Source: an uncultured Bacilli bacterium (GTDB taxonomy: Bacteria; Bacillota_I; Bacilli_A; RF39; UBA660). Taken from it: DNA of 38,433 nucleotides. Positions 3,617 through 36,880 of the stretch are shown here, one piece after another. How positions within the stretch are numbered: position 1 is the stretch's first letter; each line of letters opens with the position of its first letter. The stretch is taken from contig CAKOHL010000002.1 of the NCBI GenBank assembly GCA_934085635.1, forward strand, positions 1 to 38,433, in the 5' to 3' direction. The notes beneath the pieces were generated by a model that ran no database searches, had not been told where the DNA came from, and saw nothing but the letters and a program-made list of their open reading frames with translations. The position numbers were made by a program, and so were the translations under genes.

Positions 3617-3629
3617 AATTAAATTTAAC

Positions 3630-3660
3630 AGAAACTATATAAAAACTAGTTTCTTTTTTA
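3630..3660 (+). terminator. Intrinsic terminator after the RhuM gene
   Basis: Stem AGAAACTA (3630-3637) / TAGTTTCT (3647-3654) followed by TTTTTT. Confidence 0.6.
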
Positions 3661-3715
3661 TAAAGTATTATTCTATATTATTTCTCATATTTTTAAATAT
3701 GGGGGAGTAATGATT

Positions 3716-3901
3716 ATGAATAACAATTATGTATCAATAAACAAAGCAATAAAAAATAAGAATAAAGAAATGATCTTAGAAGTAGCCTTAACGTTAAACA
3801 AAGAACTATTTAATGAAAATAAAATTTCATACAAAATGTTCAAATATACCGAAAATAATATTTTAAAAGAATTGAAAAGTTGTAATGTAAATAGTACTTA
3901 A
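3716..3901 (+). CDS. Small basic hypothetical protein; candidate recombination directionality factor or regulator
   Basis: 61 codons from ATG 3716, 8 nt after GGGGGAG. ATG 3710 is too close to the RBS. Sits directly upstream of the recombinase gene. No recognisable motif. Confidence 0.4.
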   Translation: MNNNYVSINKAIKNKNKEMILEVALTLNKELFNENKISYKMFKYTENNILKELKSCNVNST

Positions 3902-3935
3902 TGAATTTCTAAAATTATATTATGAGAGGGGAAAA

Positions 3936-5642
3936 ATGGATTTATATAATGTTCGAAAACAATTAAATATGGGAATGCCACTTACAAGTATAAAACTCAG
4001 GGTAACAGATTATGCAAGAGTATCAACAGATCATTTAAAACAAAAGAGATCTCTTCAAAATCAAGTGGAACATTTTGAAAAATATATAAAAGATAATCCA
4101 AACTGGACTTATGTTAATGGTTATGTGGATGATGGAATAACCGGTACAAGTGATATAAAAAGAGATAATTTTATGAAAATGATTGAAGATGCTAGAAATG
4201 GTAAATTTGATTTAATAGTTACCAAAGAAATATCTAGATTTTCAAGAAACACTCTTGATAGTATTAAGTATACTAGAGAACTTTTGTCTTATGGAGTAGC
4301 TGTACTATTCGTAAATGATAATATCAACACAGCTATGCCTGATTCTGAACTCAGACTAACTATAATGGCATCTATGGCTCAAGATGAAATAAGACGCTTA
4401 TCAGAACGTGTTAAATTTGGTATGAATCGTGCGATAGAACGTGGAGAAATACTTGGTAATAACTTACTATATGGTTACAAAAAGGATAAGGATAGTAAAG
4501 TATTAAACATCGTAGAAACAGAGGCAAAAATTGTTAGAAGAATTTATGAACTTTACGCGGTTGAAGAACTCTCACTTTCTAAAATTACTAAAACTTTAAA
4601 TAATGAAGGACTAAAAACTTGTCAAGGTAAAAATTGGTGTATATCTACAATATCTCGAATGATAGAAAATCCTAAATATAAGGGATATTATTGTGCTAAA
4701 AAATCTGAAATACTAGATTATATGACAAAAAAAATAAAATACTTTAAAAAAGATGATTGGATTACCTACGAAGATACAACAAGAATTCCACCTATAATTG
4801 ATGAAAATTTATGGGAAAGAGCTAATACTCGATTATTACAAAGAAAAAAATCGTTTAAAGGGCGAAAAGAAAATAAAAACATTTATAAAAATAGATACAT
4901 ATATAGTGCTAAAATATTTTGTGCTGAGCACAATACGGTTTTCTACAGGAGAGAATTCAGAAAAACCAAAAAAGATATTACTTGGGTATGTTCAGAGTAT
5001 TTAAAAAGTGGTAAAACCATTTGTGATTCACCTAATATAAGAGAGTCAGAACTAGATGCTATTTTTAAAGATATAATTTCTAAATTACAATTAGATTTTA
5101 ATGAAATAATCGATACCCTTATAAACTCTTATAAACATTTAGAAATAGTTACTAGTATAGATGAAGAAATTTTATTACGTGAAAAAGAAATAAATAATAT
5201 TCATATCAAAAAAGATAAATTATTAGAACTTAGTATACAAAATAATTTATCTAATGAAGAATTTTATGAAAGAAATAATTCGTTTAATGAAAAAATTAAA
5301 GTACTTGAAGATGAAATAAGTAAACTAAAAAATCAAAAAATCAATTTCAAAAACGTAGCAGACGAAATTGAAGAATTAACTAAAATATTAAAACAAAAAG
5401 TAAGTTCCAAATCAACTATAAATAAATTAATTAGCTACTTAGTAGAACGTATTATAGTATCCAAAATAGATAATAACAAAAATAATATGGAATTAAAAAT
5501 ATTTTTATCTTATAAAGGAAATGCAGAAACAAATTTGAAACCTATATTAAAAGATAATTATGAATTTAAAAGAGGTTATGACACAAATGGAACTAAAAGG
5601 TATAATGTAAATTATCAAGTGAATTGTTATTTCTGTCTTTAA
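3936..5642 (+). CDS. Large serine recombinase (resolvase/invertase catalytic domain, recombinase domain, zinc ribbon and coiled coil)
   Basis: Contains 'YARVSTDHLKQKRSLQNQ' (catalytic Ser), 'DDGITGT', 'LIVTKEISRFSRNTLD', 'MAQDEIRRLSERVKFG', a Cys cluster CAEH...WVCSEY...CDSP, and a long K/E/N-rich coiled coil. RBS GAGAGGGG. Confidence 0.9.
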   Translation: MDLYNVRKQLNMGMPLTSIKLRVTDYARVSTDHLKQKRSLQNQVEHFEKYIKDNPNWTYVNGYVDDGITGTSDIKRDNFMKMIEDARNGKFDLIVTKEISRFSRNTLDSIKYTRELLSYGVAVLFVNDNINTAMPDSELRLTIMASMAQDEIRRLSERVKFGMNRAIERGEILGNNLLYGYKKDKDSKVLNIVETEAKIVRRIYELYAVEELSLSKITKTLNNEGLKTCQGKNWCISTISRMIENPKYKGYYCAKKSEILDYMTKKIKYFKKDDWITYEDTTRIPPIIDENLWERANTRLLQRKKSFKGRKENKNIYKNRYIYSAKIFCAEHNTVFYRREFRKTKKDITWVCSEYLKSGKTICDSPNIRESELDAIFKDIISKLQLDFNEIIDTLINSYKHLEIVTSIDEEILLREKEINNIHIKKDKLLELSIQNNLSNEEFYERNNSFNEKIKVLEDEISKLKNQKINFKNVADEIEELTKILKQKVSSKSTINKLISYLVERIIVSKIDNNKNNMELKIFLSYKGNAETNLKPILKDNYEFKRGYDTNGTKRYNVNYQVNCYFCL

Positions 5643-6403: not shown

Positions 6404-6970
6404 ATGAAATATTTCTGTTATCATTTAGCAAGACCTTTTATAAAGATATTTATGAAAGTATTCTATAGAATTAAAGTAGAAAATGAAAACGTCCTTAAAA
6501 ACGAAGCTTTTCTCCTAGCGGGTAATCACACATCAGTACTAGACCCATTACTAATAATATCATCTACGAAAAAACACATAAACTTCTTTGCAAAAAAAGA
6601 AATATTTAAGCCTATAATAAAATATCTATTTAAAAATGCAGGAGTAATTAGTGTAGACAGAAAAAGCAAAAATAAAGAAGCAATGGAAGAAGGAAAGAAG
6701 AGACTTTTAAATAATGAATTAGTACTAATATTTCCAGAAGGAACAACAAATAAAACTCGTGAGTTATTACCTTTTAAATATGGAGCAGTAAGTTTAGCAA
6801 GCAAAACTAATTCAAAAATATTACCATTTGTAATAAAAGGAAAATATAAATTATTTAGAAAAAGTATTAAACTAATATATTTAAATCCATATTACTTAGA
6901 ATCAGATGACTTAACAAAAGAAAATGAAAAATTAAAAAAAATAATTGAAAAGGAGTTAAACAATGAATAA
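6404..6970 (+). CDS. 1-acyl-sn-glycerol-3-phosphate acyltransferase family protein (PlsC-like), copy 1
   Basis: HX4D motif 'NHTSVLD' and 'FPEGT'; 188 aa. Confidence 0.8.
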   Translation: MKYFCYHLARPFIKIFMKVFYRIKVENENVLKNEAFLLAGNHTSVLDPLLIISSTKKHINFFAKKEIFKPIIKYLFKNAGVISVDRKSKNKEAMEEGKKRLLNNELVLIFPEGTTNKTRELLPFKYGAVSLASKTNSKILPFVIKGKYKLFRKSIKLIYLNPYYLESDDLTKENEKLKKIIEKELNNE

Positions 6971-7532
6971 TTTTTGGTATAAATTTTTAAGACCAATATT
7001 AAGTCCAATATATAAATTTTATTATAATCCAAAAATAGAAGGAAAACAAAACATACCTGAAGAAGGACCTATAATAATCGCAGGTAATCATAAACATATA
7101 ATGGATCAGTGTAATATAATTATATCAACCAAAAGAGTTATTACCTATATGGCTAAAAAAGAATACTTTGATAATCCACTAACTAAAGTATTCTTTAAAA
7201 TGGTAAAATGTATACCTGTTGATAGAAGTAAAAAAGATGAAAATGCAAAATCAAAAGCATTAGATGTTTTAAAAAATGGTGGTGCAATAGGAATATTTCC
7301 AGAAGGAACTAGAAACAAAACAAAAGAAAAACTTCTTGCGTTCAAATATGGTACTGTATCAATGGCAAAAAAAACGAACTCTTTAATAGTACCTTTCGGT
7401 ATAAGCGGAGACTACAAATTTAGAAGTAAAAACCTAAAAATTAAAATAGGAAAACCAATTGATGTATCTAAATTAACTATAGAAGAAGCAAATCAAAAAC
7501 TTTATGATGAAATATCAAATCTAATTGATTAA
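6963..7532 (+). CDS. 1-acyl-sn-glycerol-3-phosphate acyltransferase family protein (PlsC-like), copy 2
   Basis: HX4D 'NHKHIMD' and 'FPEGTRN'. Its start overlaps the stop of copy 1 by 8 nt. Confidence 0.8.
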   Translation: MNNFWYKFLRPILSPIYKFYYNPKIEGKQNIPEEGPIIIAGNHKHIMDQCNIIISTKRVITYMAKKEYFDNPLTKVFFKMVKCIPVDRSKKDENAKSKALDVLKNGGAIGIFPEGTRNKTKEKLLAFKYGTVSMAKKTNSLIVPFGISGDYKFRSKNLKIKIGKPIDVSKLTIEEANQKLYDEISNLID

Positions 7533-7685
7533 ATAAAGAAAGGTAGATTAAAATAAATCTATCACATTTATATATAAAAAAACATGAAGATCCCGATTTA
7601 TTCTTCTTGCAAAAACCTCATACTTTGTTGTACAATGGATATACAAGGTAGAAAACCTAATACGCTAGTTCAGGAGGTAATCAAA

Positions 7686-9077
7686 ATGGTATTTTCAGGC
7701 ATAACTTTTCTATATTACTTTTTACCAATAATGCTATTAGTTTATTTTATATGTCCTAAAAAATATAGAAACATAATATTACTAATAGGCAGTCTAATCT
7801 TTTATTTTTATGGAGAAACAAAATATTTCTTACTACTAGTTTTTTCTTCAATATTTAACTATCTTGTAGGTAAAAAAATAGAAAGCAGCAAACATAAAAA
7901 AATATTTTTAGCACTAGGTTTAATTGTTAATTTTGGTTTGCTATTTTACTTTAAATATTTTGACTTCTTTATAGAGAATATAAATGCTTTAATAGGTACA
8001 CAAATAAGTCTTTTAAACATAGTAATACCTATAGGAATAAGTTTCTTTACATTTAAAAATGCAAGTTACTTAATAGATATATATAATTGTAAAATAAAAG
8101 CATCAAATAGTCTTATTAATTATAGCTTATACTTATGCATATTCCAAACTATCGTGCAAGGTCCAATAGTAAGATACAAAGATGTAGAAAAAGAACTTAG
8201 TAGCAGAAAAGAATCATTTAGTCTATTCTCCAAAGGAGTAAGTAGATTTATACTTGGATTATCTAAAAAAGTATTAATAGCAAATGTTTTAGGAGAGTTA
8301 ACAACTAGTTTAGCTGGTATGGCTAGCAAAAGTATAATTTCATACTGGTTAAAAGCAAGTACTGACATACTAAGATTATACATAGACTTCTCTGGCTACA
8401 GTGATATGGCAATAGGTTTAGGCCTTATGTTTGGATTCAAGTACCTAGAAAACTTTGACTATCCATTTATGTCAAAAACAATGACAGAATTCTGGCGCAG
8501 GTGGCACATAAGCTTATCAAGTTGGTTCAAAGACTACATATATATTCCACTAGGAGGTAGTAAAGTATCTCCAAAAAGAAGAATAATCAACATACTAATA
8601 GTGTGGTTTTTAACAGGATTATGGCACGGATCAAGCTGGAATTTCATATTATGGGGACTATACTTTGGAATAATACTAATAATAGAAAAGAAATTCTTCT
8701 ATAAATATCTAAACGAACACAAAGTAATAGGTAGACTAATAACTGACATATTAGTAATGATAGGATTCATATTCTTCTATCAAACAACAATGCCAGAAAT
8801 AACAATATTCTTTAAATCAATGTTTGGATTTAAAGGCTTACCACTATTAACAAACGAAACAATATACTACATAAAAAACTATCTTATAGTGTTCATCCTT
8901 GGAGTAATAATAAGCACACCACTACTTAAAAACATAATAGCAAAATTAAAAGAAAACAAAAAAGTAAATATAATTATAAACGTACTAGAAGTAATAATGT
9001 ACATTGCATTACTAATAATTAGCACAGCTTTTATAATAGATGAATCTTTTAGTCCATTCTTATACTTTAGATTCTAG
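7686..9077 (+). CDS. MBOAT-family membrane O-acyltransferase (AlgI/DltB/PatA-like)
   Basis: Contains 'EFWRRWHISLSSWFKDYIYIPLGGS' and 'WFLTGLWHGSSWNFILWG' (conserved His region); polytopic. Start set at ATG 7686 after AGGAGG. The ORF-track extension from 7584 lacks an RBS and is not part of the family N-terminus. Confidence 0.85.
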   Translation: MVFSGITFLYYFLPIMLLVYFICPKKYRNIILLIGSLIFYFYGETKYFLLLVFSSIFNYLVGKKIESSKHKKIFLALGLIVNFGLLFYFKYFDFFIENINALIGTQISLLNIVIPIGISFFTFKNASYLIDIYNCKIKASNSLINYSLYLCIFQTIVQGPIVRYKDVEKELSSRKESFSLFSKGVSRFILGLSKKVLIANVLGELTTSLAGMASKSIISYWLKASTDILRLYIDFSGYSDMAIGLGLMFGFKYLENFDYPFMSKTMTEFWRRWHISLSSWFKDYIYIPLGGSKVSPKRRIINILIVWFLTGLWHGSSWNFILWGLYFGIILIIEKKFFYKYLNEHKVIGRLITDILVMIGFIFFYQTTMPEITIFFKSMFGFKGLPLLTNETIYYIKNYLIVFILGVIISTPLLKNIIAKLKENKKVNIIINVLEVIMYIALLIISTAFIIDESFSPFLYFRF

Positions 9078-9090
9078 GAAAGGAGAAAAA

Positions 9091-10182
9091 ATGAAAGACA
9101 AAATAATAACAATAACATTCGTAAGTTTTCTATCTATATTCCTAATAATAAACATATTTACAAAAGACAAAGAAGTATCTAGAGAAGAAAGAAGAACCCT
9201 TGCCTCATCTCCAAAACTAGAAATAAAAGAAATGATAAAAGGTGATAATTCATATTTTAATGAACTAAATACATACTTTCTAGATCAGTTTTCCTATAGA
9301 AGTACATTTAGAAAAATAAAAGGAACCATTGCCACTAGACTTTTACAAAAAAAAGAAAACAATGGAGTATTTGAAACTGAAGGACACTTAGTAAAAGTAG
9401 ACTCTAAAATAAACTATTCTTCACTAGATAACATAACATCAAAAATAAATTATATAAATGAAAAATATCTAGATGAAACAAACAAAAAATACTTTGCCTT
9501 CATTCCAGATAAAAACTTTTACATAAAGAACAAAACATTGCCTAAACTAGACTATAATGAACTAGAAACAAAACTAAAAAGCGAATTAAACTATTTAAAA
9601 TGGATAGACTTAAAAGAGGAATTGTCTCTAAGTAACTACTATAGTACAGATATACATTGGAAACAAGAAACTTTAAGCAAAGTAGTTAACAGACTAGAAA
9701 AGGAAATGAACTTAAAAATCACAAAAATGCCTGAAGAAAAAAGTTCATACTACCCATTCTATGGTGCACTTTACAGCAGCACAGCGTCAAACGTTGAAAA
9801 AGATACGATATATTACTTAAAAAATGATATAATAAATAATGTATTAGTGTATAACTATGAAAAGAATAAATATGAAAAAGTATATAACGAAGAAAATCTA
9901 AAACACATAGATAGTTATGATATATATTTATCAGGAGCAACAGCTTTACTAACAATAGAAAACAAAGCAGCACCAATTCAAAAGGAACTTATAATGTTCA
10001 GAGATTCATTCTCTAGTAGCCTAGTTCCATTATTAATAGAAAACTATAGTAGAATAACTCTAATTGATTTAAGATACATAAGTAGTAAATACTTAGAAAA
10101 AGTTGATATTAATTTCAAAAATGCTGATGTACTTTTCATATATAGTATGCCAATAATTAATAATAGTTTTTCACTAAAATAA
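9091..10182 (+). CDS. DHHW-family protein (AlgJ/AlgX-like SGNH-fold partner of MBOAT)
   Basis: N-terminal TM anchor, 'STDIHW' (a DHHW-type motif) and 'FRDSFSSSL'. Start at ATG 9091 after GGAAAGGAG. Sits immediately downstream of the MBOAT gene. Confidence 0.65.
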   Translation: MKDKIITITFVSFLSIFLIINIFTKDKEVSREERRTLASSPKLEIKEMIKGDNSYFNELNTYFLDQFSYRSTFRKIKGTIATRLLQKKENNGVFETEGHLVKVDSKINYSSLDNITSKINYINEKYLDETNKKYFAFIPDKNFYIKNKTLPKLDYNELETKLKSELNYLKWIDLKEELSLSNYYSTDIHWKQETLSKVVNRLEKEMNLKITKMPEEKSSYYPFYGALYSSTASNVEKDTIYYLKNDIINNVLVYNYEKNKYEKVYNEENLKHIDSYDIYLSGATALLTIENKAAPIQKELIMFRDSFSSSLVPLLIENYSRITLIDLRYISSKYLEKVDINFKNADVLFIYSMPIINNSFSLK

Positions 10183-10193
10183 AGGAGGACAAA

Positions 10194-10667
10194 ATGAAAA
10201 AAATAACAAAAATATTACTTTTAACAGCACTATCATTTATGCTAATTGGATGCACTACAAAAGGAAAAAACATAGATGGAAACCTTAGCAATATAATGAA
10301 TGAGATATACAAAGGAATGCCAGAAGGAGAATTACCAGAACTAGAACAGACTAAAGTAACAAAAAAAAATGAAGAATATTACTTAGGAAAAATAACTTTC
10401 TCATATAAAGAAGCTTTAGCAAGCGAGCCGTTAATGTCTTCAATCGCCCATTCAGTAGTGCTCGTAAGATTAAACAGTAGTAAAGATGCAGAAAAAGCTA
10501 AAAAAGAAATAAAAGAAAAAGTTGATCCTGCAAAATGGGTATGTGTAAACGTAGAAGATAAAAACGTATTAGTTGAAAGCAAAGGAGATTTAGTACTTCT
10601 AGTAATGGATAATGAATACTCACAAAAAATAATGGATAAATTCTTATCACTAGGAGAATCCAAGTAA
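10194..10667 (+). CDS. Lipoprotein, DUF4358-like
   Basis: Lipobox 'LIGC'. The pattern 'VVLVRLNSSKDAEKAKKEIKEKV...W...V' matches my recollection of DUF4358, which commonly follows DHHW/MBOAT genes. Confidence 0.55.
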   Translation: MKKITKILLLTALSFMLIGCTTKGKNIDGNLSNIMNEIYKGMPEGELPELEQTKVTKKNEEYYLGKITFSYKEALASEPLMSSIAHSVVLVRLNSSKDAEKAKKEIKEKVDPAKWVCVNVEDKNVLVESKGDLVLLVMDNEYSQKIMDKFLSLGESK

Positions 10668-10744: not shown

Positions 10745-11728
10745 ATGAAAAAAAGAAGAAGAAAGAAAAGAAAACTTATAGTTAAGAATTTAATAAAGTT
10801 AATAGTATTATTCTTAATACTAGTATTTTTGATTGTCCTAACAATAAGTAAAATATATAGAAGTAGAAGTTTTAAAGTAAACTTTAACTCTGATGGTGGA
10901 AGTGCTGTTAAAAAAGAAGTAGTAAAATATGGAGAAAAAGCATATACTCCACAAGATCCAAATAAAGAAGGATACGAATTTAATGGTTGGTACATTAACG
11001 ATAAATTATATGACTTTGATTCAAAAGTAAAAAAAGATATAACCTTAACAGCTAAATGGGATGAAATTCAAAAAGATAATCCAGTCAATCCAGACGAAAA
11101 TAATAACACAAATCCGGCCCCACCAAACGAAAATAATAATACAAATACTGAAGAAAAAGACCCATATCCATATGACCATTTAAGTACAGATGATGCTAAA
11201 AGAATATTTAGTGAGAAAAAAGCGCTTGTAGTTTCTGACTCAATGGGAGAAGGACTAAGTGCATATAAAGTTTTAAACGAAGAAAATGTTATCTGGCATC
11301 GTGGTAGAAGAGTAGATAATATGGACATAGATATAGATAAAATATTAGAATTTAATCCATCATACATCTTTATGAGTTATGGAGCAAACGACATAAAATG
11401 GTGGGGAGGAAATGCAGAAAAATTTATAAATGCTTACAAAACACAAATAGAAAACCTACAAAGTAAACTACCAAATACCAAAATAATAATCAACTCAGTT
11501 TTACCAGTAGGAGAAAAAGCTATAGAAAAAGATGCATCATTTACTCATCAAGAAGAATTTAACACAGCATTAAAAGCCTTAGCGAAAGAAATGAACCTAG
11601 ACTTTATAGAAAATGGATTCATAGTATACACTGATGAAAAACCATTCTCATCAGATGGAGTACATCCAAAAAGTTTCTTCTTCTTTGCTTGGGGTAAACA
11701 TATGGCAAGTTATTTAGAAAAAAACTAA
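10745..11728 (+). CDS. Membrane-anchored protein with a Listeria-Bacteroides (InlB B-type) repeat and a C-terminal SGNH/GDSL hydrolase domain
   Basis: N-terminal K/R-rich segment plus a TM. Repeat 'FNSDGGSAVKKEVVKYGEKAYTPQDPNKEGYEFNGWY'. An Asn/Pro linker. SGNH block I 'VVSDSMGEG', then 'SYGANDI' and 'SDGVHP'. Confidence 0.75.
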   Translation: MKKRRRKKRKLIVKNLIKLIVLFLILVFLIVLTISKIYRSRSFKVNFNSDGGSAVKKEVVKYGEKAYTPQDPNKEGYEFNGWYINDKLYDFDSKVKKDITLTAKWDEIQKDNPVNPDENNNTNPAPPNENNNTNTEEKDPYPYDHLSTDDAKRIFSEKKALVVSDSMGEGLSAYKVLNEENVIWHRGRRVDNMDIDIDKILEFNPSYIFMSYGANDIKWWGGNAEKFINAYKTQIENLQSKLPNTKIIINSVLPVGEKAIEKDASFTHQEEFNTALKALAKEMNLDFIENGFIVYTDEKPFSSDGVHPKSFFFFAWGKHMASYLEKN

Positions 11729-11752
11729 TGCACACTTAAAAGTGCATTTTTT
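11727..11752 (+). terminator. Intrinsic terminator
   Basis: Stem AATGCAC (11727-11733) / GTGCATT (11742-11748) followed by TTTT. Confidence 0.5.
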
Positions 11753-11848
11753 AATTTGTAAAAAAATAAAGAAAAACATAAACTTATTGCCAAAAACTAC
11801 CTATTTAATGATATAATATATAATGAGATAATATAGTAGGAGGCATTA

Positions 11849-14113
11849 ATGAAAAAACACATACTAATAATTTTAACAATAATAATTAATATTTTGACAA
11901 TAACTAAGCTTAATGCCTTAGCGGGCTATACAACTGGCACATATGTCAAAGTAAGAAGTGAAGCAAGTGTTAATGGTGCAGAACTAGCAGAAATAGCAAA
12001 TAGAAACACAGTCCTTAATTTAATTAGTGATGAACTTTATAATGTAGGAGACACAAATTGCTCAGTAGGTTGGTATAAAATAAATTATAATGATAAAGAA
12101 GGATATATATGTGGAAAATATGTATCAATCGGAGAATTACCTAGCATAGATGATGGGCCAGGATTCAATGAAGAAACATATGAAGCAAGAATAAATGGAG
12201 TAAACATATATGTAAGAAAATCAGCAAGTTCTTCTTCACAAGTGTTAGATACACTTTTGCCAGGAACGAACTTAAAAATAGTAGGAAATAAAGTAAGTGG
12301 AACAGGATGTACAGAAGGGTACTATAAAGTAAACTATTACAAAAATCAAACTGGTTATGTGTGCTCAAAATTTGTAGTAACAAAGGGTGAAATAACAAGT
12401 AAAGACGAATCGTATGAACAAACACTAAAATCTCTTGGATTCCCTGATTCATACATTCCATATCTAGTAAAACTACACCAGGACCACCCAACTTGGACAT
12501 TCAAACCAATACTAACGAATCTTTACTGGTCGGAAGTATTAGATGGATTCAAAGGCAAAACTGCACTTCTAAACTACAAAATAGAAGCATATCTAGAAAA
12601 CTTAAATGACAACATCGACGGGGCAGGTTGGTATCCAGCAAAATCCTCAGTCGTAGCATTCTACTTAGACCCAAGAAACTTTCTAACAGAAAAATTTGTA
12701 TTTATGTTTGAAAGTTTAAGATATGATTACACAAGTTCAACTAAAGACTCACTAAATATGGAAAATGAAATAACAAAGAAATACTTATCAACAATGTCAT
12801 CAGTTTTATCAAGTTCATTTTTAAACACTGATGAATACAAAAAATACTATGTAGAAGCTGGATTTAATTTTGACATTAATCCAGTACATCTGGTGACACG
12901 TTCAAAAGGAGAAGGTGCAGCAAATGAAAACTACGTAGCAGTATCCGGGAATAACCCTGATTTGTACTGTAATTCAGTAACTGGGGAATGCTTCAATATA
13001 AATAATTTTTACAATTTCTACAACATAGGTGCATATAAACAAAATGGATTATCTAACCCAGTAAAAAACGGCCTTCTATATGCATGCGGACCTGCATGTG
13101 GATACGGAACTTCATATGGTAGACCTTGGGACACAAGAGAAAAAGCAATAAAAGGTGGGGCTGAATTCATATCCAACAGATACATAGGAAAAGGACAGTT
13201 TACTAGATACTTACAAAGATATAACGTTAACCCGTTCGGACAAAATGCACTATACACAAACGCATATCAAACTAACGTAATCGCAGCTTGTTCAGACTCA
13301 GCAGATGCATACACTTCATATAAAGAAATGAATTTATTAGAAGAACCATACTTATTTGAAATACCAGTATTTTTAAATATGCCAGACGTAGTAAGTCTTC
13401 CAAATATAGCAAGCACAGTAAACACTATAGAAAGCATAACAATAAATGGTAAAAAAATAACATCATTTGATAAAGACATATTAGAATTCACAGTTTATGT
13501 AAACGTAAACGACAAAGAATACGACATCGCAACAGTTCTTACTGATAATACAAGTAAAATTGAAGGTACTGGAAAAATATCTTTTGAAGAACAATCAAAA
13601 ACTCAAGAATTAAAAGTAACAGCAGAAAACGGTGATGTAAGAATATACAAAATGACTATGGTAAAAGTAAATGACACCACAACTGTTGAAGAAATAATAA
13701 GCAACTTATCAGTAAAAGTAACTGGTAACATAATGCACGGAATAAGTCCTGGAACTCTTGGAAGCACTCTTGTAACAAGCATAAACAAATTTAGCCCAGG
13801 CACAACAGTTGTTTTAAACGAAATGGATGGAAATGCAGCTTCAATATCTGGAATCTTAAAAACAGGACAAACAATCAAACTAACAACACCATCTGGAGAA
13901 ACAAAATCATTTGTGGTATCTGTAATAGGCGACACAAGTGGAGATGGAGAAGTAACAATCTTAGACTTATTAAGAGTACAAAAACACCTTCTAGGTTCAT
14001 CAAAACTAACAGATTATAACTTAGTTGCAGGAGACACAAATGCTGATGGAGAAGTAACAATACTAGACCTACTAAGAATTCAAAAATACATACTAAAAAC
14101 AATAAATCTATAG
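11849..14113 (+). CDS. Secreted peptidoglycan hydrolase: 2x SH3b, GH73-like N-acetylglucosaminidase, cadherin-like beta-sandwich and a C-terminal type-I dockerin
   Basis: - Signal peptide.
- Two 'GYxxxxxVxVRSxxS...GWYKVNY..GYVC' SH3b repeats.
- GH73-like blocks 'FYNIGAY', 'RPWDTREKAIKGGAEFISNRYIGKGQFTRYLQRYNVNP', 'NAYQTNV'.
- Cadherin-like 'ITINGKKITSFDKDILEFTVYV...VTAENGDVRIYKMTM'.
- Duplicated Ca-binding dockerin repeat 'GDTSGDGEVTILDLLRVQKHLLG' / 'GDTNADGEVTILDLLRIQKYIL' (nt ~13922-14110). Confidence 0.8.
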   Translation: MKKHILIILTIIINILTITKLNALAGYTTGTYVKVRSEASVNGAELAEIANRNTVLNLISDELYNVGDTNCSVGWYKINYNDKEGYICGKYVSIGELPSIDDGPGFNEETYEARINGVNIYVRKSASSSSQVLDTLLPGTNLKIVGNKVSGTGCTEGYYKVNYYKNQTGYVCSKFVVTKGEITSKDESYEQTLKSLGFPDSYIPYLVKLHQDHPTWTFKPILTNLYWSEVLDGFKGKTALLNYKIEAYLENLNDNIDGAGWYPAKSSVVAFYLDPRNFLTEKFVFMFESLRYDYTSSTKDSLNMENEITKKYLSTMSSVLSSSFLNTDEYKKYYVEAGFNFDINPVHLVTRSKGEGAANENYVAVSGNNPDLYCNSVTGECFNINNFYNFYNIGAYKQNGLSNPVKNGLLYACGPACGYGTSYGRPWDTREKAIKGGAEFISNRYIGKGQFTRYLQRYNVNPFGQNALYTNAYQTNVIAACSDSADAYTSYKEMNLLEEPYLFEIPVFLNMPDVVSLPNIASTVNTIESITINGKKITSFDKDILEFTVYVNVNDKEYDIATVLTDNTSKIEGTGKISFEEQSKTQELKVTAENGDVRIYKMTMVKVNDTTTVEEIISNLSVKVTGNIMHGISPGTLGSTLVTSINKFSPGTTVVLNEMDGNAASISGILKTGQTIKLTTPSGETKSFVVSVIGDTSGDGEVTILDLLRVQKHLLGSSKLTDYNLVAGDTNADGEVTILDLLRIQKYILKTINL

Positions 14114-14122
14114 GAGGAAAAA

Positions 14123-15502
14123 ATGAATAAAAAAATAAAAATAATACTAATGCTCTTGCTAACACTAACTATGTCACTAGGACTAATAAAAGAACTAAAC
14201 GCAGCAAACGCAAACATAAAAGTAACGACAAATAAATCATATCTAGTCGTGGGAGGAGAAATAACTGTAACAACAAGAATCTCTTCTGCCGAAGCATTAG
14301 GCTCTTGGGAGTACACATTATCATATGACTCAAGTAAACTAAAACTAATAAGTGGAACAACAAACGTAGTAGACTATGCTTCTAACTCATCTACTAAATC
14401 AAGAAGTTACACATACAAATTTAAAGTAATAGCAAAAGGAACAAGTACAGTATCAATAAAAGGATACAATGGATATGCATTTGACGAATCAAAACTAAGC
14501 ATATCAGCTGGAAGTGTAAAAATAACAGCAATAACACAAGCAGAACTTGAAGCAAGCTACAGCAAAAACAACAACCTAAGCTCACTAGGAGTAGAAGGCT
14601 ATGAACTAAGTACTCCATTTGACAAAAACACTCTAGAATACACTGTAAGCGTGCCATCAGATGTAGAAAAAATAACAATAAACGCAGCTGTAGAAGACAA
14701 AACAGCAAGTCTAATAGGAACTGGAGAATTTGAAGTATCAGAAGGAGAAAACAAATTTGAAATCAAAGTAACAGCGCAAAATGGTGGATTAAAAACATAC
14801 ACACTAAAAATAAATGTTGAAGATAAAAACCCTATAGAAGTAGTAATAGATAACGAAAAATACACAGTAGTAAAAAGAGTAAAAAGTCTTGAAATCCCAA
14901 GAACATACGAAGAAACAACTGAAAACATAAACGGAATAGACGTACCAGCATTTAAAAGTACAATAACTAACTTCACTTTAATTGGTTTAAAAAATATAAG
15001 TGGAGAAGTGAGCTTATACCTATATGATAATGGTGTATACACAAAATACACTGAAATAAATACAGGTGGAATCGTAATATTCCCTAAAGAAACAAAAAAC
15101 ATACCAAAGGACTACACAAAAACAGAAATAGAAATAAATGGTATAAAAGTAACTGCATACAAATACAAAAAACAAACAAACTTCTATCTAATATATGGAG
15201 TTAACATTGAAACAGGAAAAGAAGGATTATATGAATATGATATAGAAAATTCTAGCATAATAAAATATAACTCTGAAATAATAGATGAATTAAACAAAAG
15301 AATAGACAACTACTTCCTAATCATAGCAGTTTTAGGAGTAGAAAGCCTAGTATTATTAACAGTACTATTAATAACAAATGTAAAAAGAAAAAGTAAAAAA
15401 AGAAACAAAAAACAAATCAAAAACATAACTGAACAAGAAGAAAAAGAAAAAGAAACTGAAAATGAAGACAAAACAAAAAAATCCCTTGAAGATAAAGCAT
15501 AA
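14123..15502 (+). CDS. Type-I membrane protein with an N-terminal cohesin-like domain, a cadherin-like beta-sandwich domain, a C-terminal TM helix and a K/E-rich tail
   Basis: Signal peptide. Cohesin-like 'ANIKVTTNKSYLVVGGEITVTTRISSAEALGSWEYTLSYDSSKLKLISG'. Cadherin-like 'LSSLGVEGYELSTPFDKNTLEYTVSVP...VTAQNGGLKTYTLKINV'. TM 'FLIIAVLGVESLVLLTVLLI' followed by KRKSKKRNKK. Starts 10 nt after the dockerin gene. Confidence 0.7.
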   Translation: MNKKIKIILMLLLTLTMSLGLIKELNAANANIKVTTNKSYLVVGGEITVTTRISSAEALGSWEYTLSYDSSKLKLISGTTNVVDYASNSSTKSRSYTYKFKVIAKGTSTVSIKGYNGYAFDESKLSISAGSVKITAITQAELEASYSKNNNLSSLGVEGYELSTPFDKNTLEYTVSVPSDVEKITINAAVEDKTASLIGTGEFEVSEGENKFEIKVTAQNGGLKTYTLKINVEDKNPIEVVIDNEKYTVVKRVKSLEIPRTYEETTENINGIDVPAFKSTITNFTLIGLKNISGEVSLYLYDNGVYTKYTEINTGGIVIFPKETKNIPKDYTKTEIEINGIKVTAYKYKKQTNFYLIYGVNIETGKEGLYEYDIENSSIIKYNSEIIDELNKRIDNYFLIIAVLGVESLVLLTVLLITNVKRKSKKRNKKQIKNITEQEEKEKETENEDKTKKSLEDKA

Positions 15503-15540: not shown

Positions 15541-17337
15541 ATGAAAAAAATAACAATATATAAAATATTAAGCGGTATACTAATTTCCCTTTTGGTTATA
15601 TCAATGGGATTTATGCTTTACACTTTATCACTATTATCAGGAATAGAAACATTCTATAGAATAATGTTCTCAATCCTTTTAATACTATTTCTAATAGTAC
15701 TAACATACTCACTATTAGATAGTGTAAAAAATAACAAAAAGAAAAAAATGATTATAAGTTCAATACTAACTATCTTACTAAGCATAATATTAGGAGTAGT
15801 ATCATTCTACATCTACCGTGCTTATGTAGGGCTAGATAATCTAAACAAGAGTGAAATAACATACACAACTAAACTTATATCATATGAAAAACTAAACGTA
15901 AACGAAATAAAAGATAAAAAAATAGGTATACTTTCAAACGAAGAAGATATAACAGGATACATATTACCAAATGAAATTATTGATAAATTAAATCTATCAA
16001 AAAATAATGAAATAATAAAATATGGAGACACTATTACCCTAATGAGTGCTTTCATAAATAATGAAGTAGACTTAATATTTATAAGTGATAACTATAGAAA
16101 TATGTTTAATAACATTGAAGAATATGATAGCTCAAAAGAAATATTTGAAATAACATCATTAAAAAAAGTATATAAGAAAAAACAAGTAGAAAACACAGCA
16201 ATAGATAAAACAAAAGTAACTAAACCATTCACAATGCTACTACTTGGTATAGATAGTGAACAAGATGACATTAGAAAAAGTAGTTCATTTAATGGAGACA
16301 CAATAATGATGGTCACATTTGACCCAGAAACACTAAGTACAACAATGTTCAGTATTCCTAGAGACACATACGTAAAAATGGCTTGTGGTGGAAGAATAAC
16401 AAAAATAAATCACGCATCTTGGGGTGGAACAAGTTGTATGGTAAAAACAGTAGAAAACTTAACTGGAATAAAAATAGACTACTATGCAAAAATAAACTTT
16501 AAAGGTGTAGTAGACTTAGTTAATATACTAGATGGAATAAATGTAGACGTACCGGTAAAATTCTGTGAACAAAACTCAGATCGTCAGTGGGGCGACAAAA
16601 CGATCTGCCTTGAACCAGGAATGCAAAAATTAGATGGAGAACAAGCATTAGCCTTAGCTAGACACAGAAAAACACTTCCACTAGGAGACTTCCAAAGAGG
16701 ACAAAATCAGCAATTAGTAGTAGAAGGAATGATAGGTAGTCTTAAAAACGTAAAAAGTGTAGAAGACTTCTATAAAATACTTGATACAATTGGTAAAAAT
16801 ATGGATACAAATATGACTACAGAAGAAATGTTATCATTCTATAATATAGGTAAAAACCTACTACTAAAAAGTGGAGATGTTAACCTTAACATAACAAAAA
16901 CATTCCTAACTGGATATGACCAATATATTACTGTTGGTAACTCAAAAAGCTATACATTCCAATACTATAAACAAAGCTTAGCTGAAATAGTAAAAGCAAT
17001 GAAAATAAATCTAGGTTTACTAAAAAAAGAAGAAATAAAAACATTTAACTTTGACTTAAACACACCATATGAAAAGAAAATAATCGGTAAAACATACTAT
17101 AGTGATGAACAAAGAGTATCACTAATGCCTAACCTAAGCTCTTACACACTAGATGAAGCAAAAGCCTGGGCATCAAGAAATGGATTTACCCTAACAGTCA
17201 AAGAAGCACTAGTAGAAAGCGAAACATACACTGATGGGCAAATAATAAACCAAAGCTTAAAAGAAGGCTCACTATTAGAAGGTGCAGATAAAAACATAAC
17301 AATAACTATTGCAAAAATAAGCAATATTGATAATTAG
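15541..17337 (+). CDS. LytR-CpsA-Psr (LCP) family glycopolymer transferase with a multi-TM N-terminus and a C-terminal PASTA domain
   Basis: LCP blocks 'LLLGIDS...GDTIMMVTFDP...SIPRDTYV', 'YYAKINFKGVVDLVNILDGINVDVP' and 'LDGEQALALARHRK...GDFQRGQNQQ'. PASTA-like 'MPNLSSYTLDEAKAWASRNGFTLTV...DGQIINQSLKEGSLLEGADKNITITIA' (nt ~17125-17320). Confidence 0.8.
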   Translation: MKKITIYKILSGILISLLVISMGFMLYTLSLLSGIETFYRIMFSILLILFLIVLTYSLLDSVKNNKKKKMIISSILTILLSIILGVVSFYIYRAYVGLDNLNKSEITYTTKLISYEKLNVNEIKDKKIGILSNEEDITGYILPNEIIDKLNLSKNNEIIKYGDTITLMSAFINNEVDLIFISDNYRNMFNNIEEYDSSKEIFEITSLKKVYKKKQVENTAIDKTKVTKPFTMLLLGIDSEQDDIRKSSSFNGDTIMMVTFDPETLSTTMFSIPRDTYVKMACGGRITKINHASWGGTSCMVKTVENLTGIKIDYYAKINFKGVVDLVNILDGINVDVPVKFCEQNSDRQWGDKTICLEPGMQKLDGEQALALARHRKTLPLGDFQRGQNQQLVVEGMIGSLKNVKSVEDFYKILDTIGKNMDTNMTTEEMLSFYNIGKNLLLKSGDVNLNITKTFLTGYDQYITVGNSKSYTFQYYKQSLAEIVKAMKINLGLLKKEEIKTFNFDLNTPYEKKIIGKTYYSDEQRVSLMPNLSSYTLDEAKAWASRNGFTLTVKEALVESETYTDGQIINQSLKEGSLLEGADKNITITIAKISNIDN

Positions 17338-17395: not shown

Positions 17396-18367
17396 ATGAA
17401 AATATGTATAATTGGATCAGGAGCATATGGTATATCATTAGCTTCTAGATTAATAAAAAACAACCACGAAGTAGTATGCTACTCAAACAACAAAGAAGAA
17501 GTTAATATACTAACAAAAGAAAGAAAATCAGACAAACTAAAAGGTTATAAAGTACCAAAAGAAATAAACTTTACAACAAACATCAAAAGTGCAATAAAAG
17601 GAAGCGTGCTTGTAATATTTGCTCTTCCCGCAGTCGCACTAGACGAAGTAACTAAAAAAAGTAGTAAATACATAACAGAAAATATGCACATAGTAATAGC
17701 AACAAAAGGAATAGAAAACAACACCTGTGCTTTTCTAAATGAAATAGTAGAAAGAAATATAAACACAAATAAAATAGCAATAATAAGTGGCCCAACATTT
17801 GCAGTAGACATTAAAACAGATACCCCAATTGGACTTACACTTGCAACAACTAACATAGACACAAAAGAAGTAGTAAAAAATTTGTTAGAAAGCAAAATAA
17901 CTAAAATAAGAACAACACAAGACCTAGTAGGAGTAGAAATATGTGGTGCAATAAAAAATGTAATGGCAATCGCATCAGGTATGCTAGGTGGAATGAATGC
18001 ACTAGACTCAACAAAAGCTTTATTTTTAACTGAAGCATTAAACGACATAAAAGAATTAATAGATGCTCTAGGTGGCAACAAAAAAACAATACTATCATAT
18101 GCAGGATTCGGAGACATACTAATGACTTGCACAAGCACAAACAGTAGAAACTACACATATGGCAAACTAATCGGAGAAGGAAAATTAAAAGAGGCTGAAG
18201 AATATGCGAAAACAACAACAGTAGAAGGACTATACACCCTAAGAAGTGTAAAAGAACTAATAAAAAAAGAAAATGTTAAAATGCCAATAATAGACTTAAT
18301 AAGTGACATCATATGTGGAAACCAAGACAAAGAAAGTATGCTAACATTTTTAATAGAAAAAAAATAA
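17396..18367 (+). CDS. gpsA: NAD(P)H-dependent glycerol-3-phosphate dehydrogenase
   Basis: Contains 'MKICIIGSGAYGISLA' (Rossmann), 'GPTFA', 'GAIKNVMAIASGM' and 'TCTSTNSRNYTYG'. Confidence 0.9.
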   Translation: MKICIIGSGAYGISLASRLIKNNHEVVCYSNNKEEVNILTKERKSDKLKGYKVPKEINFTTNIKSAIKGSVLVIFALPAVALDEVTKKSSKYITENMHIVIATKGIENNTCAFLNEIVERNINTNKIAIISGPTFAVDIKTDTPIGLTLATTNIDTKEVVKNLLESKITKIRTTQDLVGVEICGAIKNVMAIASGMLGGMNALDSTKALFLTEALNDIKELIDALGGNKKTILSYAGFGDILMTCTSTNSRNYTYGKLIGEGKLKEAEEYAKTTTVEGLYTLRSVKELIKKENVKMPIIDLISDIICGNQDKESMLTFLIEKK

Positions 18368-18435
18368 TAATGGCCTAATTTTTATAAATTGATTATCTAA
18401 ACAATATATAGTATAATATCTTTGGTGACAAATAT

Positions 18436-19362
18436 ATGAAAAAATGCGCAGTTATATATAATCCAGAAAGTGGTAGACCAGTTGATAAAAAGAATCTAAA
18501 AGACTTACCAGAGATATTAAAAGCAAATGACTATGAGGCACTTATGTGTCCTACTAAAAAAGCTAAAGATACAATAAACATAATAAAAGATTTACCAGAT
18601 GACATAGATTTAGTAATATGTGCTGGAGGAGATGGAACTCTTAACGAAGGAATAACTGGTAACCTAATGAGAGATAAAAAACTACTAATAAGCCAATTAC
18701 CAGTAGGTACAATGAATGATGTAGGTACAATGTATGGCTTCACAAAAAATATGTTAATAAATGCACAAATGGTATTAAACGGTACTAATAAAAACATAGA
18801 CGTATGTATGATAAACAAAGTACCTTTTGTATACGTTGCTTGCTTAGGTAGCTATGTAAGTGTAAGTTATAGTACACCTAGGGAATATAAGAAGAAATAT
18901 GGACGACTAGCATACATCTTTAATGCACTTCACGCTTTAAGAGGAGAAGTTAAACTTTTTGATTTATCCTATGAAGTAGATGGAATCAAAAAAGAAGGTA
19001 CATACTCTTTTATATTTATAACAAACACAAGTAGAATGGGTGGAGTATCTAACATATACGATGACATTAAACTAAATGATAATAGATTTGAAGTAATACT
19101 AATAAGTGCAAAAAAGAAAACCGAATTAGTCTTACTTGCTAACAAAGTATTAACAGGAAAAGTAAGAAATATGCCTGGACTTGAATATTATAAAACTGAT
19201 AGCTTTAAAATAACATTTAAAGATGTACCACAAAGCTGGGTACTTGATGGTGAAGAATTCAAACACAACACTAAAACATTTGAATTTTCAATTAACAAAG
19301 ACATAACTATGAGAGTACCAAGCAAAAACATAGTAAAACTATTTATAGACGACGAGGAGTAA
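18436..19362 (+). CDS. Diacylglycerol kinase-family lipid kinase (DagK/YegS-like)
   Basis: 'GGDGTLNEG' catalytic-domain motif and 'LPVGTMNDV'; 308 aa. Confidence 0.8.
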   Translation: MKKCAVIYNPESGRPVDKKNLKDLPEILKANDYEALMCPTKKAKDTINIIKDLPDDIDLVICAGGDGTLNEGITGNLMRDKKLLISQLPVGTMNDVGTMYGFTKNMLINAQMVLNGTNKNIDVCMINKVPFVYVACLGSYVSVSYSTPREYKKKYGRLAYIFNALHALRGEVKLFDLSYEVDGIKKEGTYSFIFITNTSRMGGVSNIYDDIKLNDNRFEVILISAKKKTELVLLANKVLTGKVRNMPGLEYYKTDSFKITFKDVPQSWVLDGEEFKHNTKTFEFSINKDITMRVPSKNIVKLFIDDEE

Positions 19363-19368
19363 AAAAAT

Positions 19369-20226
19369 ATGCTGTATGTAAACAAAGATAGACAAGATAA
19401 TATGGACTACGACAAAGAAAGCAAAGCTGTAAATTTCTTCTACGGCACAAAAATAGGTAGATTCTTAATAAAAATAATATCGCTTCCAATATTCTCTAAA
19501 ATAATGGGACTATTTCTAAGTAGTAGAATATCTAAACTAATGATAAAACCATTTATTAAAAAGAATAGCATAGATATAAATCTCTATGAACAAAAAAAAT
19601 ACAAATCATTTAATGATTTTTTTGTAAGAAAAAAGAAAAATATTATAATAGACAAAAACAAAAAAATGTTAATAAGTCCCTGTGATGCCAAACTAACAGT
19701 ATATGACATAAATGAATTTTCTTGCTTTGAAATAAAGGATTCTTTTTATAGTTTAAAAGATTTGGTAAATAATAATGAAATATATAAAGATTTTATAGAT
19801 GGACAACTCTTAATATTTAGACTATGTAAAGATGACTATCATAGATATCACTACATAGATAATGGTTATCAAGAAGAAAATAATTTTGTAAAAGGTGTAT
19901 TAAATACAGTAAGACCTATTGCTTATAGAAAGTGTAAAGTCTTTAAAAGAAACTCAAGAGAATATACTATCTTACAAACAGAAAACTTTGGTAATGTACT
20001 AGAAGTTGAAGTAGGTGCTGTTATGGTAGGTAAAATTAAAAACTTACACGAAAACTATAAATTCAAAAAGGGAGAAGAAAAAGGCATGTTTTTATTTGGT
20101 GGTTCGACCATATGCCTAGCATTTCAAAAAGGAAGTATTAAACTAGATAAAGATATACTAAATAACTCAGTTAGAAACATAGAAACAATAGTTAAATGTG
20201 GAGAAAAAATAGGTATAAAAAATTAG
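19369..20226 (+). CDS. psd: Phosphatidylserine decarboxylase proenzyme
   Basis: Contains 'SPCDAKL' and 'DYHRYHY', plus the self-cleavage region 'FLFGGSTI' (GST). RBS GAGGAG lies 9 nt upstream of the ATG. Confidence 0.8.
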   Translation: MLYVNKDRQDNMDYDKESKAVNFFYGTKIGRFLIKIISLPIFSKIMGLFLSSRISKLMIKPFIKKNSIDINLYEQKKYKSFNDFFVRKKKNIIIDKNKKMLISPCDAKLTVYDINEFSCFEIKDSFYSLKDLVNNNEIYKDFIDGQLLIFRLCKDDYHRYHYIDNGYQEENNFVKGVLNTVRPIAYRKCKVFKRNSREYTILQTENFGNVLEVEVGAVMVGKIKNLHENYKFKKGEEKGMFLFGGSTICLAFQKGSIKLDKDILNNSVRNIETIVKCGEKIGIKN

Positions 20227-31624: not shown

Positions 31625-31930
31625 ATGGCAAAAATAGAAAATAAGAAAAAAGAAGTTTCTAAAGGAAAAGAAATGAATGATAAAGATATATTAAATGATA
31701 TATTAGAATACGAAAAAAATATGAGTAATAATTATAGCATAGCATTAAATGAAATGAGCAATAAAGTTCTTTATAAAAAAGTATTCACACTATTTAAAGA
31801 AAGTAAAGGACTTGCTAGAGACATATTTGATACTATGTTTGTAAATGGATGGTACAGTCTAGAAACAGCAGAAGAAAATAAAATTACAAAAGCTTACGAT
31901 GAAGCTAAAAAAGAATATGGTGAACTTTAA
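31625..31930 (+). CDS. Coat F domain spore coat protein
   Basis: 'DKDILNDILEYEKNMSNNYSIALNEMSNKVLYKKVFTLFKESKGLARDIFDTMFVNGWY' fits the Coat F pattern. RBS AGGAGG. Confidence 0.65.
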   Translation: MAKIENKKKEVSKGKEMNDKDILNDILEYEKNMSNNYSIALNEMSNKVLYKKVFTLFKESKGLARDIFDTMFVNGWYSLETAEENKITKAYDEAKKEYGEL

Positions 31931-36856: not shown

Positions 36857-36880
36857 AAAAACTCCATAACGGAGTTATAA
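36854..36880. terminator. Short bidirectional hairpin between convergent genes
   Basis: Stem AACTCC (36860-36865) / GGAGTT (36871-36876), flanked by an A-run and a T-run. Overlaps the cotJC stop. Confidence 0.4.

Follow-up and report, generated by a model that had tools for sequence, protein, structure and literature searches.

The locus and its two gene products

The subject of this analysis is a pair of adjacent genes in a 38,433-nt stretch of DNA from an uncultured Bacilli bacterium (this whole stretch is referred to below as the window), with a GC content in the region of 26 to 33%. The first gene (positions 11849 to 14113, forward strand) is predicted to code for a secreted peptidoglycan hydrolase of 754 amino acids that ends in a dockerin, and the second (14123 to 15502, forward strand) for a membrane-anchored scaffold of 459 amino acids that begins, after its signal peptide, with a cohesin. 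An earlier note on this DNA had called the same two open reading frames (ORFs) and proposed that they constitute a dedicated module for holding an autolysin at the outer face of the membrane, and both ORFs are present as it described them. For comparison, one genome per species was scanned for relatives of the scaffold (185,579 species), which yielded 487 stretches, and the best 80 loci were used. The hydrolase profile and alignment contain 46 relatives, the scaffold model and alignment 44, and the scan of the isolated cohesin domain 57, and columns for dockerin and cohesin conservation and covariation were taken from 72 orthologous pairs.

The intergenic gap is only 9 nt, such that the scaffold start codon begins at the 10th base after the hydrolase stop, and the junction reads CTA TAG GAG GAA AAA ATG. 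The ribosome-binding site of the scaffold gene (AGGAGG, 14112 to 14117, forward strand) overlaps the TAG stop of the hydrolase gene (14111 to 14113) and lies 5 nt before the ATG. There are no terminator-like sites between the hydrolase and scaffold genes, nor between the scaffold gene and the LCP (LytR-CpsA-Psr) gene that follows, and a terminator-like hairpin that closes the upstream SGNH gene (11727 to 11748, forward strand; a 7-bp stem and then a T run) separates that gene from the hydrolase-scaffold unit. From this arrangement we read the two genes as a translationally coupled operon. A putative promoter and ribosome-binding site for the hydrolase gene lie at 11787 to 11843 on the forward strand (TTGCCA, a 19-nt spacer, and a TG-n-TATAAT extended -10 at 11809 to 11817, with AGGAGG at 11838 to 11843), but this promoter is tentative, because promoter-like matches in such AT-rich DNA are no commoner than in shuffled sequence. 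Synthesis of a read-through fusion from the in-frame genes was considered and rejected, since the scaffold gene is equipped with a ribosome-binding site and a signal peptide of its own and the two genes share a frame in only 20 related loci.

The hydrolase has a predicted N-terminal signal peptide (residues 1 to ~24, ...LNALA/GY) followed by two bacterial SH3 (SH3b) wall-binding domains (residues ~27 to 95 and 118 to 180; 11927 to 12388, forward strand), and, in agreement with the SH3b assignment of the earlier note, Pfam SH3_3 matches the protein twice (E value, 1.1e-17) and matches all 46 relatives. A GH73-type N-acetylglucosaminidase domain follows (residues ~195 to 512; 12431 to 13384, forward strand), containing Glu355 (12911 to 12913) and a Y473-Q-T-N motif. 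The GH73 assignment stands by homology to solved catalytic domains but not by the Pfam search that the note had suggested, since the Glucosaminidase family (PF01832) matches neither the window hydrolase at an E value of ≤0.1 nor any of the 46 relatives at ≤0.01. Searched as a single sequence against the PDB, the hydrolase matches Clostridium perfringens Acp (5wqw, 2.4e-7) and also Staphylococcus aureus Atl (6fxo) and SagB (6fxp and 6u0o), and the profile of 46 relatives matches Atl (6fxo) at 5.5e-18, both SagB structures at ~1e-16, Acp (5wqw) at 4e-16, and AtlE (4pi7) at 2e-13. Across the alignment of relatives, Glu355 is invariant and aligns with the ALLETG glutamate of Atl and SagB, and Y473 and N476 are invariant, with T475 nearly so, in a motif that aligns with HQYATD; we take Glu355 to be the catalytic acid and Y473-x-T-N to be the signature tyrosine motif of GH73. 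The NCBIfam SagB model (NF052642) gives 35.9 bits (4.7e-9), and because this is far under its cut-off of 425, we place the hydrolase in the Atl/SagB/Acp branch but not as a SagB orthologue. The first product is thus classified as a secreted peptidoglycan N-acetylglucosaminidase of this branch of GH73, with its enzymatic activity, which would be cleavage of the GlcNAc-MurNAc bond, being a prediction.

Downstream of the catalytic domain is a cadherin-like beta-sandwich module (residues 525 to 610; 13421 to 13678, forward strand), which the earlier note had recognized in both proteins. The window copy falls under the Pfam threshold for PF12733, which matches 36 of the 46 hydrolase relatives, and it is 34% identical (E value, 2e-13) to the corresponding module of the scaffold. 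It is followed by a small, presumably beta-rich domain without a family (residues 611 to 692; 13679 to 13924, forward strand) that is conserved in the alignment of relatives; a few of these relatives have weak matches, somewhere in the protein, to beta-sandwich families. We note that these ~80 residues run straight into the first calcium loop of the dockerin, an arrangement that recalls the X-module-dockerin dyads found in type II and type III complexes.

The hydrolase ends in a type I dockerin (residues 693 to 754; 13925 to 14110, forward strand) composed of two near-identical segments, GDTSGDGEVTILDLLRVQKHLLG and GDTNADGEVTILDLLRIQKYIL, each of ~22 residues and each with an EF-hand-like loop (D-x-N/S-x-D-G ... 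D at position 12) and then a helix, the pattern by which we recognize a dockerin. The duplicated dockerin claimed in the earlier note is borne out, with PF00404 (Dockerin_1) matching residues 694 to 749 at 48.7 bits (cut-off, 22.9) and matching all 46 relatives, along with matches to the PDB dockerins 8x39, 2ccl, and 1ohz. The calcium loops are D695-T-S-G-D-G-E-V-T-I-L-D706 and D729-T-N-A-D-G-E-V-T-I-L-D740. Among the 72 pairs, the Asp and Gly residues of the loops and a D-L-L-x-x-Q-K motif in both helices are invariant, and the near identity of the helices together with duplication of the loops suggests a dual binding mode. The relatives do vary in other respects, with hydrolases falling into length groups of ~725 to 770 amino acids (with two SH3b domains, as in the window) and ~540 to 690 amino acids, and with dockerin helix positions 9 to 11 being T-I-L or D-I-I in some and N-A-L or N-S-L in others; these differences suggest that there are subtypes of the pair.

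The scaffold is predicted to be a single-pass type I membrane protein in which an N-terminal cohesin is borne on a stalk of two further beta domains, and its signal peptide (residues 1 to 27), single C-terminal transmembrane helix, and Lys/Glu-rich tail all agree with the topology proposed previously. An AlphaFold model built with the 44 relatives has a mean predicted local distance difference test (pLDDT) score of 85 and exceeds 90 over residues 29 to 233, and contains, in order, the signal-peptide helix, a beta-sandwich (29 to 137), a short helix (139 to 145), a second beta-sandwich (152 to 233), a beta-rich region (239 to 381), and a long helix from residue 384 within which the membrane span lies. 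The first sandwich corresponds to the cohesin domain (residues 28 to 138; 14204 to 14536, forward strand). The Pfam Cohesin family (PF00963) does not match the full-length window scaffold, which we attribute to the whole protein having been scanned and not the isolated domain; residues 28 to 138 taken alone score 25.2 bits (cut-off, 24.1; E value, 2.1e-5), and the isolated domain matches in all 57 relatives, with a best E value of 8.7e-10. Even at full length, PF00963 matches 12 of the 44 relatives, several of them above the gathering cut-off, at residues ~32 to 149.

Structural matching leads to the same family. A profile of the cohesin domain matches 18 PDB sequences at an E value of ≤1, 17 of which are cohesins (best, 3l8q, 1.4e-5), and the top Foldseek match of the whole scaffold model in the PDB is a C. 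perfringens cohesin-FN3 construct (2w1n, 1.4e-7). Further cohesins in the Foldseek list are 2vo8 and 2jh2 from C. perfringens, the non-cellulosomal cohesin 2xdh of Archaeoglobus fulgidus, and the cellulosomal 3l8q, 4dh2_C, and 5nrk_A, with target TM-scores for the cohesins of 0.5 to 0.64; the list also holds many multi-domain beta-rich proteins, because the whole scaffold model was the query. The cohesin assignment of the earlier note, which it had left to be decided by Pfam and structural matching, thus survives both.

Between the cohesin and the next module is a segment, TQAELEASYSKNNNL (scaffold residues 138 to 152; 14534 to 14578, forward strand), that contains the short helix of the model and is nearly invariant. 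It is the most conserved stretch of the scaffold, with A144, Y146, S147, N150, and L152 invariant among the 44 relatives, and conservation at this level appears to exceed the needs of a passive linker. The cadherin-like module of the scaffold follows (residues 152 to 233; 14576 to 14821, forward strand), with PF12733 matching residues 152 to 231 (E value, 4e-11) and matching all 44 relatives. The Pfam scan gave no family for the third extracellular region (residues 234 to 385; 14822 to 15277, forward strand), which is beta-rich in the model, with strands over residues 239 to 381 and pLDDT of 85 to 93. The single transmembrane helix (residues 396 to 420; 15308 to 15382, forward strand) coincides with the hydropathy maximum and is helical in the model, and carries near its middle Glu407-Ser408 (15341 to 15346), with Glu present in 38 of the 44 relatives and Thr or Ser next to it in 38 of the 44. 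A conserved Glu in mid-membrane suggests that the scaffold may have an intramembrane partner. The Lys/Glu-rich cytoplasmic tail (residues 421 to 459; 15383 to 15499, forward strand) is poorly conserved and has the highest column entropy of the protein.

Conservation of the pair in variable surroundings

The two genes are inherited together with few departures. Seventy-nine of the 80 loci have a hydrolase homologue directly upstream of the scaffold gene and in the same orientation, and in the remaining locus the scaffold gene begins 42 nt from the contig end. Seventy-seven pairs were resolved by ORF extraction, and the gap between the genes is 8 to 18 nt in 75 of these; one pair has a 4-nt overlap, and the gap of the 77th is artefactual, with the start codon mis-chosen. 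One pair with a 14-nt gap borders a run of N, and in all other pairs the hydrolase ends in the same duplicated dockerin. Hidden Markov models built from the dockerins and cohesins of the pairs pick out exactly one ORF per kind in each ~17-kb locus, and the same is true of the 38-kb window. The arrangement is also kept in distant relatives, with two hydrolases at 32 to 38% identity each being followed at 10 nt by a cadherin-like protein, one of which carries a recorded Cohesin match. The description of the pair as a dedicated two-gene module is therefore well founded.

All of the best 80 loci are in gut or rumen metagenome-assembled genomes, labelled as uncultured Bacilli, Tenericutes, Mycoplasmatota, Firmicutes, Clostridia, and Muribaculaceae (the last probably mis-binned), with Clostridium sp. 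CAG:628 and Candidatus Onthocola stercoravium among them. The genes around the pair vary among these genomes. An LCP gene is the commonest nearby gene, lying within 8 kb of the pair in 56 of the 80 loci, although its position and orientation vary, and GpsA is near the pair in 18. The two distant loci differ again, one being beside divIVA and a polysaccharide deacetylase gene and the other beside obg and ribosomal protein genes. Because the surroundings vary while the pair persists, we conclude that the conserved unit is the pair itself, kept through extensive genome rearrangement.

The neighbours in the window are a DHHW gene and the MBOAT, SGNH, LCP, and lipid-metabolism genes that the earlier note had listed, and, as it had also stated, no plant-polysaccharide enzymes are present among the proteins of the window. 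Immediately upstream are an MBOAT gene (7584 to 9077), a DHHW-family gene (9040 to 10182), a small lipoprotein gene (10194 to 10667), and, at the end of this 7584-to-11728 set, a gene coding for a Listeria-Bacteroides repeat and an SGNH/GDSL domain (10745 to 11728), which together look like a surface-polymer O-acylation system. This set is not part of the conserved module, as only one or two of the 80 loci have its MBOAT, DHHW, lipoprotein, and SGNH genes along with the pair. The LCP protein coded immediately downstream (15541 to 17337) has N-terminal membrane helices and a C-terminal PASTA domain. Membrane-lipid genes flank the pair, with GpsA, a DAGK-family kinase, and phosphatidylserine decarboxylase downstream (17396 to 20226) and two PlsC-type acyltransferases upstream (6404 to 7532).

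The window has further features. A RhuM-family gene (2639 to 3616) adjoins a large serine recombinase gene (3936 to 5642), and this region (2639 to 5642) may mark the border of an integrated element or be what is left of one. Three spore-coat genes are present, coding for Coat_F (31625 to 31930), a CotJC-like Mn catalase (36875 to 37432), and CotJB (37432 to 37956), and because of these the host probably sporulates, despite the Tenericutes and Mycoplasmatota labels of its relatives.

Proposed contact between the partners and possible role as a tether

We consider it probable that the pair is a minimal, non-cellulosomal, 1:1 cohesin-dockerin operon serving to tether an Atl/SagB-like autolysin close to the membrane. 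Both proteins would be exported, and the scaffold would remain anchored through its C-terminal helix, its cohesin being the part farthest from the membrane, where it would catch the otherwise anchorless hydrolase through its dockerin in a calcium-dependent manner. The three consecutive beta domains of the scaffold would put the hydrolase on the order of 10 nm from the membrane, with the SH3b domains engaging peptidoglycan and the GH73 domain cleaving glycan strands. The glycan cut, during growth or when daughter cells separate, would belong to the wall of the producing cell, with the enzyme retained and not diffusing away; a role in the cell's own envelope would fit the frequent presence of an LCP gene nearby.

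Several observations weigh against this interpretation. The window cohesin clears the Pfam cut-off by only ~1 bit, and two other beta-sandwich families, BatD and Inhibitor_I42, each match the domain in 30 of the 57 relatives. The census of one dockerin and one cohesin covers the ~17-kb loci and the window, and other cohesins and dockerins are possible elsewhere in these genomes. The binding of dockerin to cohesin, and its calcium dependence, we infer, and structural modelling does not add to it; when the two were joined as a read-through with the stop codon removed (the dockerin, three linker residues, and the whole scaffold, with 43 scaffold relatives), AlphaFold reproduced the scaffold, but the dockerin, which had no alignment, was modelled at pLDDT of 28 to 56 and no interface could be read. 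Covariation is similarly unhelpful. In mutual information with average product correction (APC) over the 72 pairs, 28 of the best 40 dockerin-scaffold column pairs fall in the cohesin domain, which accounts for 31% of the columns, and involve dockerin positions 9 and 10 of both repeats, but control regions of the hydrolase are enriched to a similar or greater degree (the cadherin-like module at 0.95 and the first SH3b domain at 0.68). Because the controls are enriched alike, we regard the signal as reflecting clade structure and do not count it as evidence of contact. Lastly, the physiological role, whether in the cell's own wall, at the septum, or elsewhere, is assigned by analogy.

The enzyme could instead be directed outward. 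A tethered glucosaminidase could forage for peptidoglycan, attacking wall debris or the walls of other bacteria, with the tether keeping released muropeptides close to the cell, following the nutritional logic of cellulosomes and amylosomes. Cohesin-dockerin systems otherwise hold polysaccharide-degrading enzymes at the cell surface (PMC4611034); the lineage carrying the pair consists of metagenome-assembled genomes labelled as uncultured Bacilli or Tenericutes, and the uncultured Bacilli orders RF39, RFN20, and ML615J-28 are predicted to be without some peptidoglycan precursor steps and are possibly muropeptide scavengers (PMC10868615). The stalk of ~350 residues could, as modelled, project the enzyme outward. 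However, genes for muropeptide transport or catabolism are not linked to the pair in the loci examined, and the commonest neighbour codes for an LCP wall-polymer ligase, which points to the cell's own wall, and we think foraging unlikely.

The two proteins could also cooperate through some other contact. The N-terminal domain of the scaffold could be a generic Ig-like or BatD-like domain, consistent with the BatD and Inhibitor_I42 matches, and the dockerin a calcium-binding stabilizer or one that binds another partner, with contact or regulation perhaps occurring through the cadherin-like modules or through segment 138 to 152, where conservation in the scaffold peaks. It is the hydrolase cadherin-like module, and not the dockerin, that covaries most strongly with cohesin columns, and dockerin-cohesin binding has itself been inferred, with the fused model leaving the dockerin at low pLDDT. 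Of the 100 strongest pairs in covariation with the scaffold, 31 come from columns of that module (13421 to 13678), and all of these except one lie in the cohesin (14204 to 14536), a pattern that may reflect clade structure or a second contact. For orientation, the dockerin-binding face of a cohesin is its 8-3-6-5 sheet. Against such a contact, Cohesin is the only family matched by all 57 relatives and has the best scores, the PDB structures matched by the profile are almost all cohesins, and cohesins lead the fold matches. Moreover, it is difficult to account in any other way for a lone dockerin and a lone cohesin being inherited together in 79 of 80 genomes, and cooperation without cohesin-dockerin contact seems to us quite unlikely. 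The conservation of segment 138 to 152 and of Glu407 and the covariation between cadherin-like module and cohesin hint that the scaffold may do more than hold its partner passively.

A sporulation-specific lysin, acting in cortex remodelling, germination, or mother-cell lysis and held by the scaffold on the mother-cell or forespore membrane, would fit the Coat_F, CotJB, and CotJC-like Mn catalase genes of the window and the occurrence of GH73 enzymes with SH3b domains among sporulation lysins, but is improbable, as the sequence preceding the hydrolase has the look of a housekeeping-type extended -10 promoter and not of a sporulation-sigma one (a weak point in AT-rich DNA), the pair is unlinked to sporulation genes in the other loci examined, and one distant pair is near divIVA and the polysaccharide deacetylase gene, that is, among division and wall genes. 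A phage endolysin or other mobile origin is dismissed, since the pair sits among chromosomal housekeeping genes in every locus examined.

Relation to known systems and meaning for the lineage

Cohesin-dockerin pairs are the glue of cellulosomes, and scattered non-cellulosomal pairs are mostly without an assigned role. In cellulosomal type I dockerins, the helix contact positions are S-T and K-R, and in the dockerin described here they are I-L and Q-K. The pair otherwise resembles the type I complexes, such as that of the Clostridium thermocellum Xyn10B dockerin with the second cohesin of CipA (1ohz and 2ccl), in that the dockerin belongs to the same Pfam family, matches the same PDB chains, and has duplicated calcium loops, and the scaffold matches Cohesin. 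It differs in having one short cohesin (~110 residues) and no array, in its cargo being a peptidoglycan hydrolase and not a plant-polysaccharide enzyme, and in its anchor being a C-terminal transmembrane helix and not SLH domains or a sortase. Membership in a cellulosome or amylosome was rejected because each locus has a single cohesin and a single dockerin (a count that covers the loci and the window), because the window is devoid of plant-polysaccharide enzymes, and because the anchor is a transmembrane helix.

The dockerins of C. perfringens are of a different type. The non-cellulosomal cohesins of this organism (GH84C and GH33; 2w1n, 2vo8, and 2jh2) are the best structural matches to the scaffold, with E values of 1.4e-7 to 5e-5 and TM-scores of 0.6 on the target, and, like the role proposed here, exemplify cohesins and dockerins employed outside plant-fibre degradation, namely in complexes of toxins and enzymes. 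Their modules, however, are on secreted enzymes that bind one another, and there is no membrane scaffold. Non-cellulosomal precedents comprise these C. perfringens enzyme complexes, the A. fulgidus cohesin, and the amylosome of Ruminococcus bromii (PMC4611034). The amylosome is similar in that cohesins and dockerins organize non-cellulase enzymes in a gut Firmicute, but involves 26 dockerins, four cohesins, and starch-degrading GH13 enzymes serving nutrition (PMC4611034).

The closest precedent by description is in Ruminococcus bicirculans, a non-cellulolytic gut bacterium in which one dockerin and one cohesin occur in association with an enzyme of family GH73 (Wegmann et al. 2014, cited in PMC4611034), and a GH73 enzyme is also listed among the glycoside hydrolases unique to Ruminococcus albus in a rumen survey (PMC4081043). 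The two systems are alike in being non-cellulosomal, apparently 1:1 cohesin-dockerin pairs with a GH73 wall hydrolase in a gut Firmicute. They are unlike in that R. bicirculans belongs to the Clostridia (Ruminococcaceae) and that its pair appears, in the citing source, as a genome remark that does not extend to architecture, distribution, or function, so that the comparison is by description only; the pair in the window is a conserved operon in ~80 or more uncultured Bacilli species, with a transmembrane-anchored scaffold. The link between GH73 and a lone cohesin-dockerin pair is thus already known at the level of that remark (PMC4611034), and while the earlier note had rightly placed the pair among non-cellulosomal ones with few assigned functions, it is less new than the note implied.

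A functional parallel is found in S. aureus, where the membrane protein SpdC places the membrane-bound GH73 enzyme SagB so that it processes newly made glycan strands (bioRxiv 10.1101/2020.05.21.109470). The catalytic domains are homologous, and in both systems a GH73 enzyme would be held at the membrane by a partner, as seen for SagB-SpdC (6u0o) and as proposed here. However, SagB has its own N-terminal transmembrane helix and SpdC is polytopic, whereas the window hydrolase combines SH3b domains and a dockerin with a signal peptide that looks cleavable, and its partner is a single-pass protein with a cohesin. Membership of the hydrolase in the SagB type (NF052642) was rejected on its score under the cut-off, its signal peptide and SH3b N terminus, and its single-pass partner.

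What is new is the full architecture, including a transmembrane-anchored, single-cohesin scaffold and a cadherin-like module common to both partners, together with the finding that a large lineage of uncultured Bacilli conserves the pair as a translationally coupled operon, with a catalytic domain tied to the Atl/SagB branch. It is an unusually clean case, in which a single plug, a single socket, and a single cargo whose enzyme type is known are strictly inherited together. Current annotations of the two proteins ("hypothetical," "SH3 domain-containing," and "cadherin-like beta sandwich domain-containing") could be corrected.

In related uncultured Bacilli orders, sortases and many classical lytic enzymes and autolysins are reported to be lost, and possibly some precursor-synthesis steps (PMC10868615), and these losses make both an alternative means of anchoring and a foraging role conceivable. 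We offer, as a doubtful but broader proposal, that in these reduced-genome gut Bacilli the pair is the dedicated holder of the main glucosaminidase, a minimal "murosome" that either replaces classical wall-anchoring modules for cell separation or harvests environmental peptidoglycan in the manner of a cellulosome, with Glu407 and segment 138 to 152 linking the scaffold to another membrane partner, for example the machinery for wall synthesis. If the proposed binding is true, the pair would provide a compact, natural cohesin-dockerin combination from a mesophilic gut organism for protein engineering, and would represent a new Gram-positive way to restrain an autolysin at the membrane, functionally converging on SagB-SpdC but with cellulosome-type parts.

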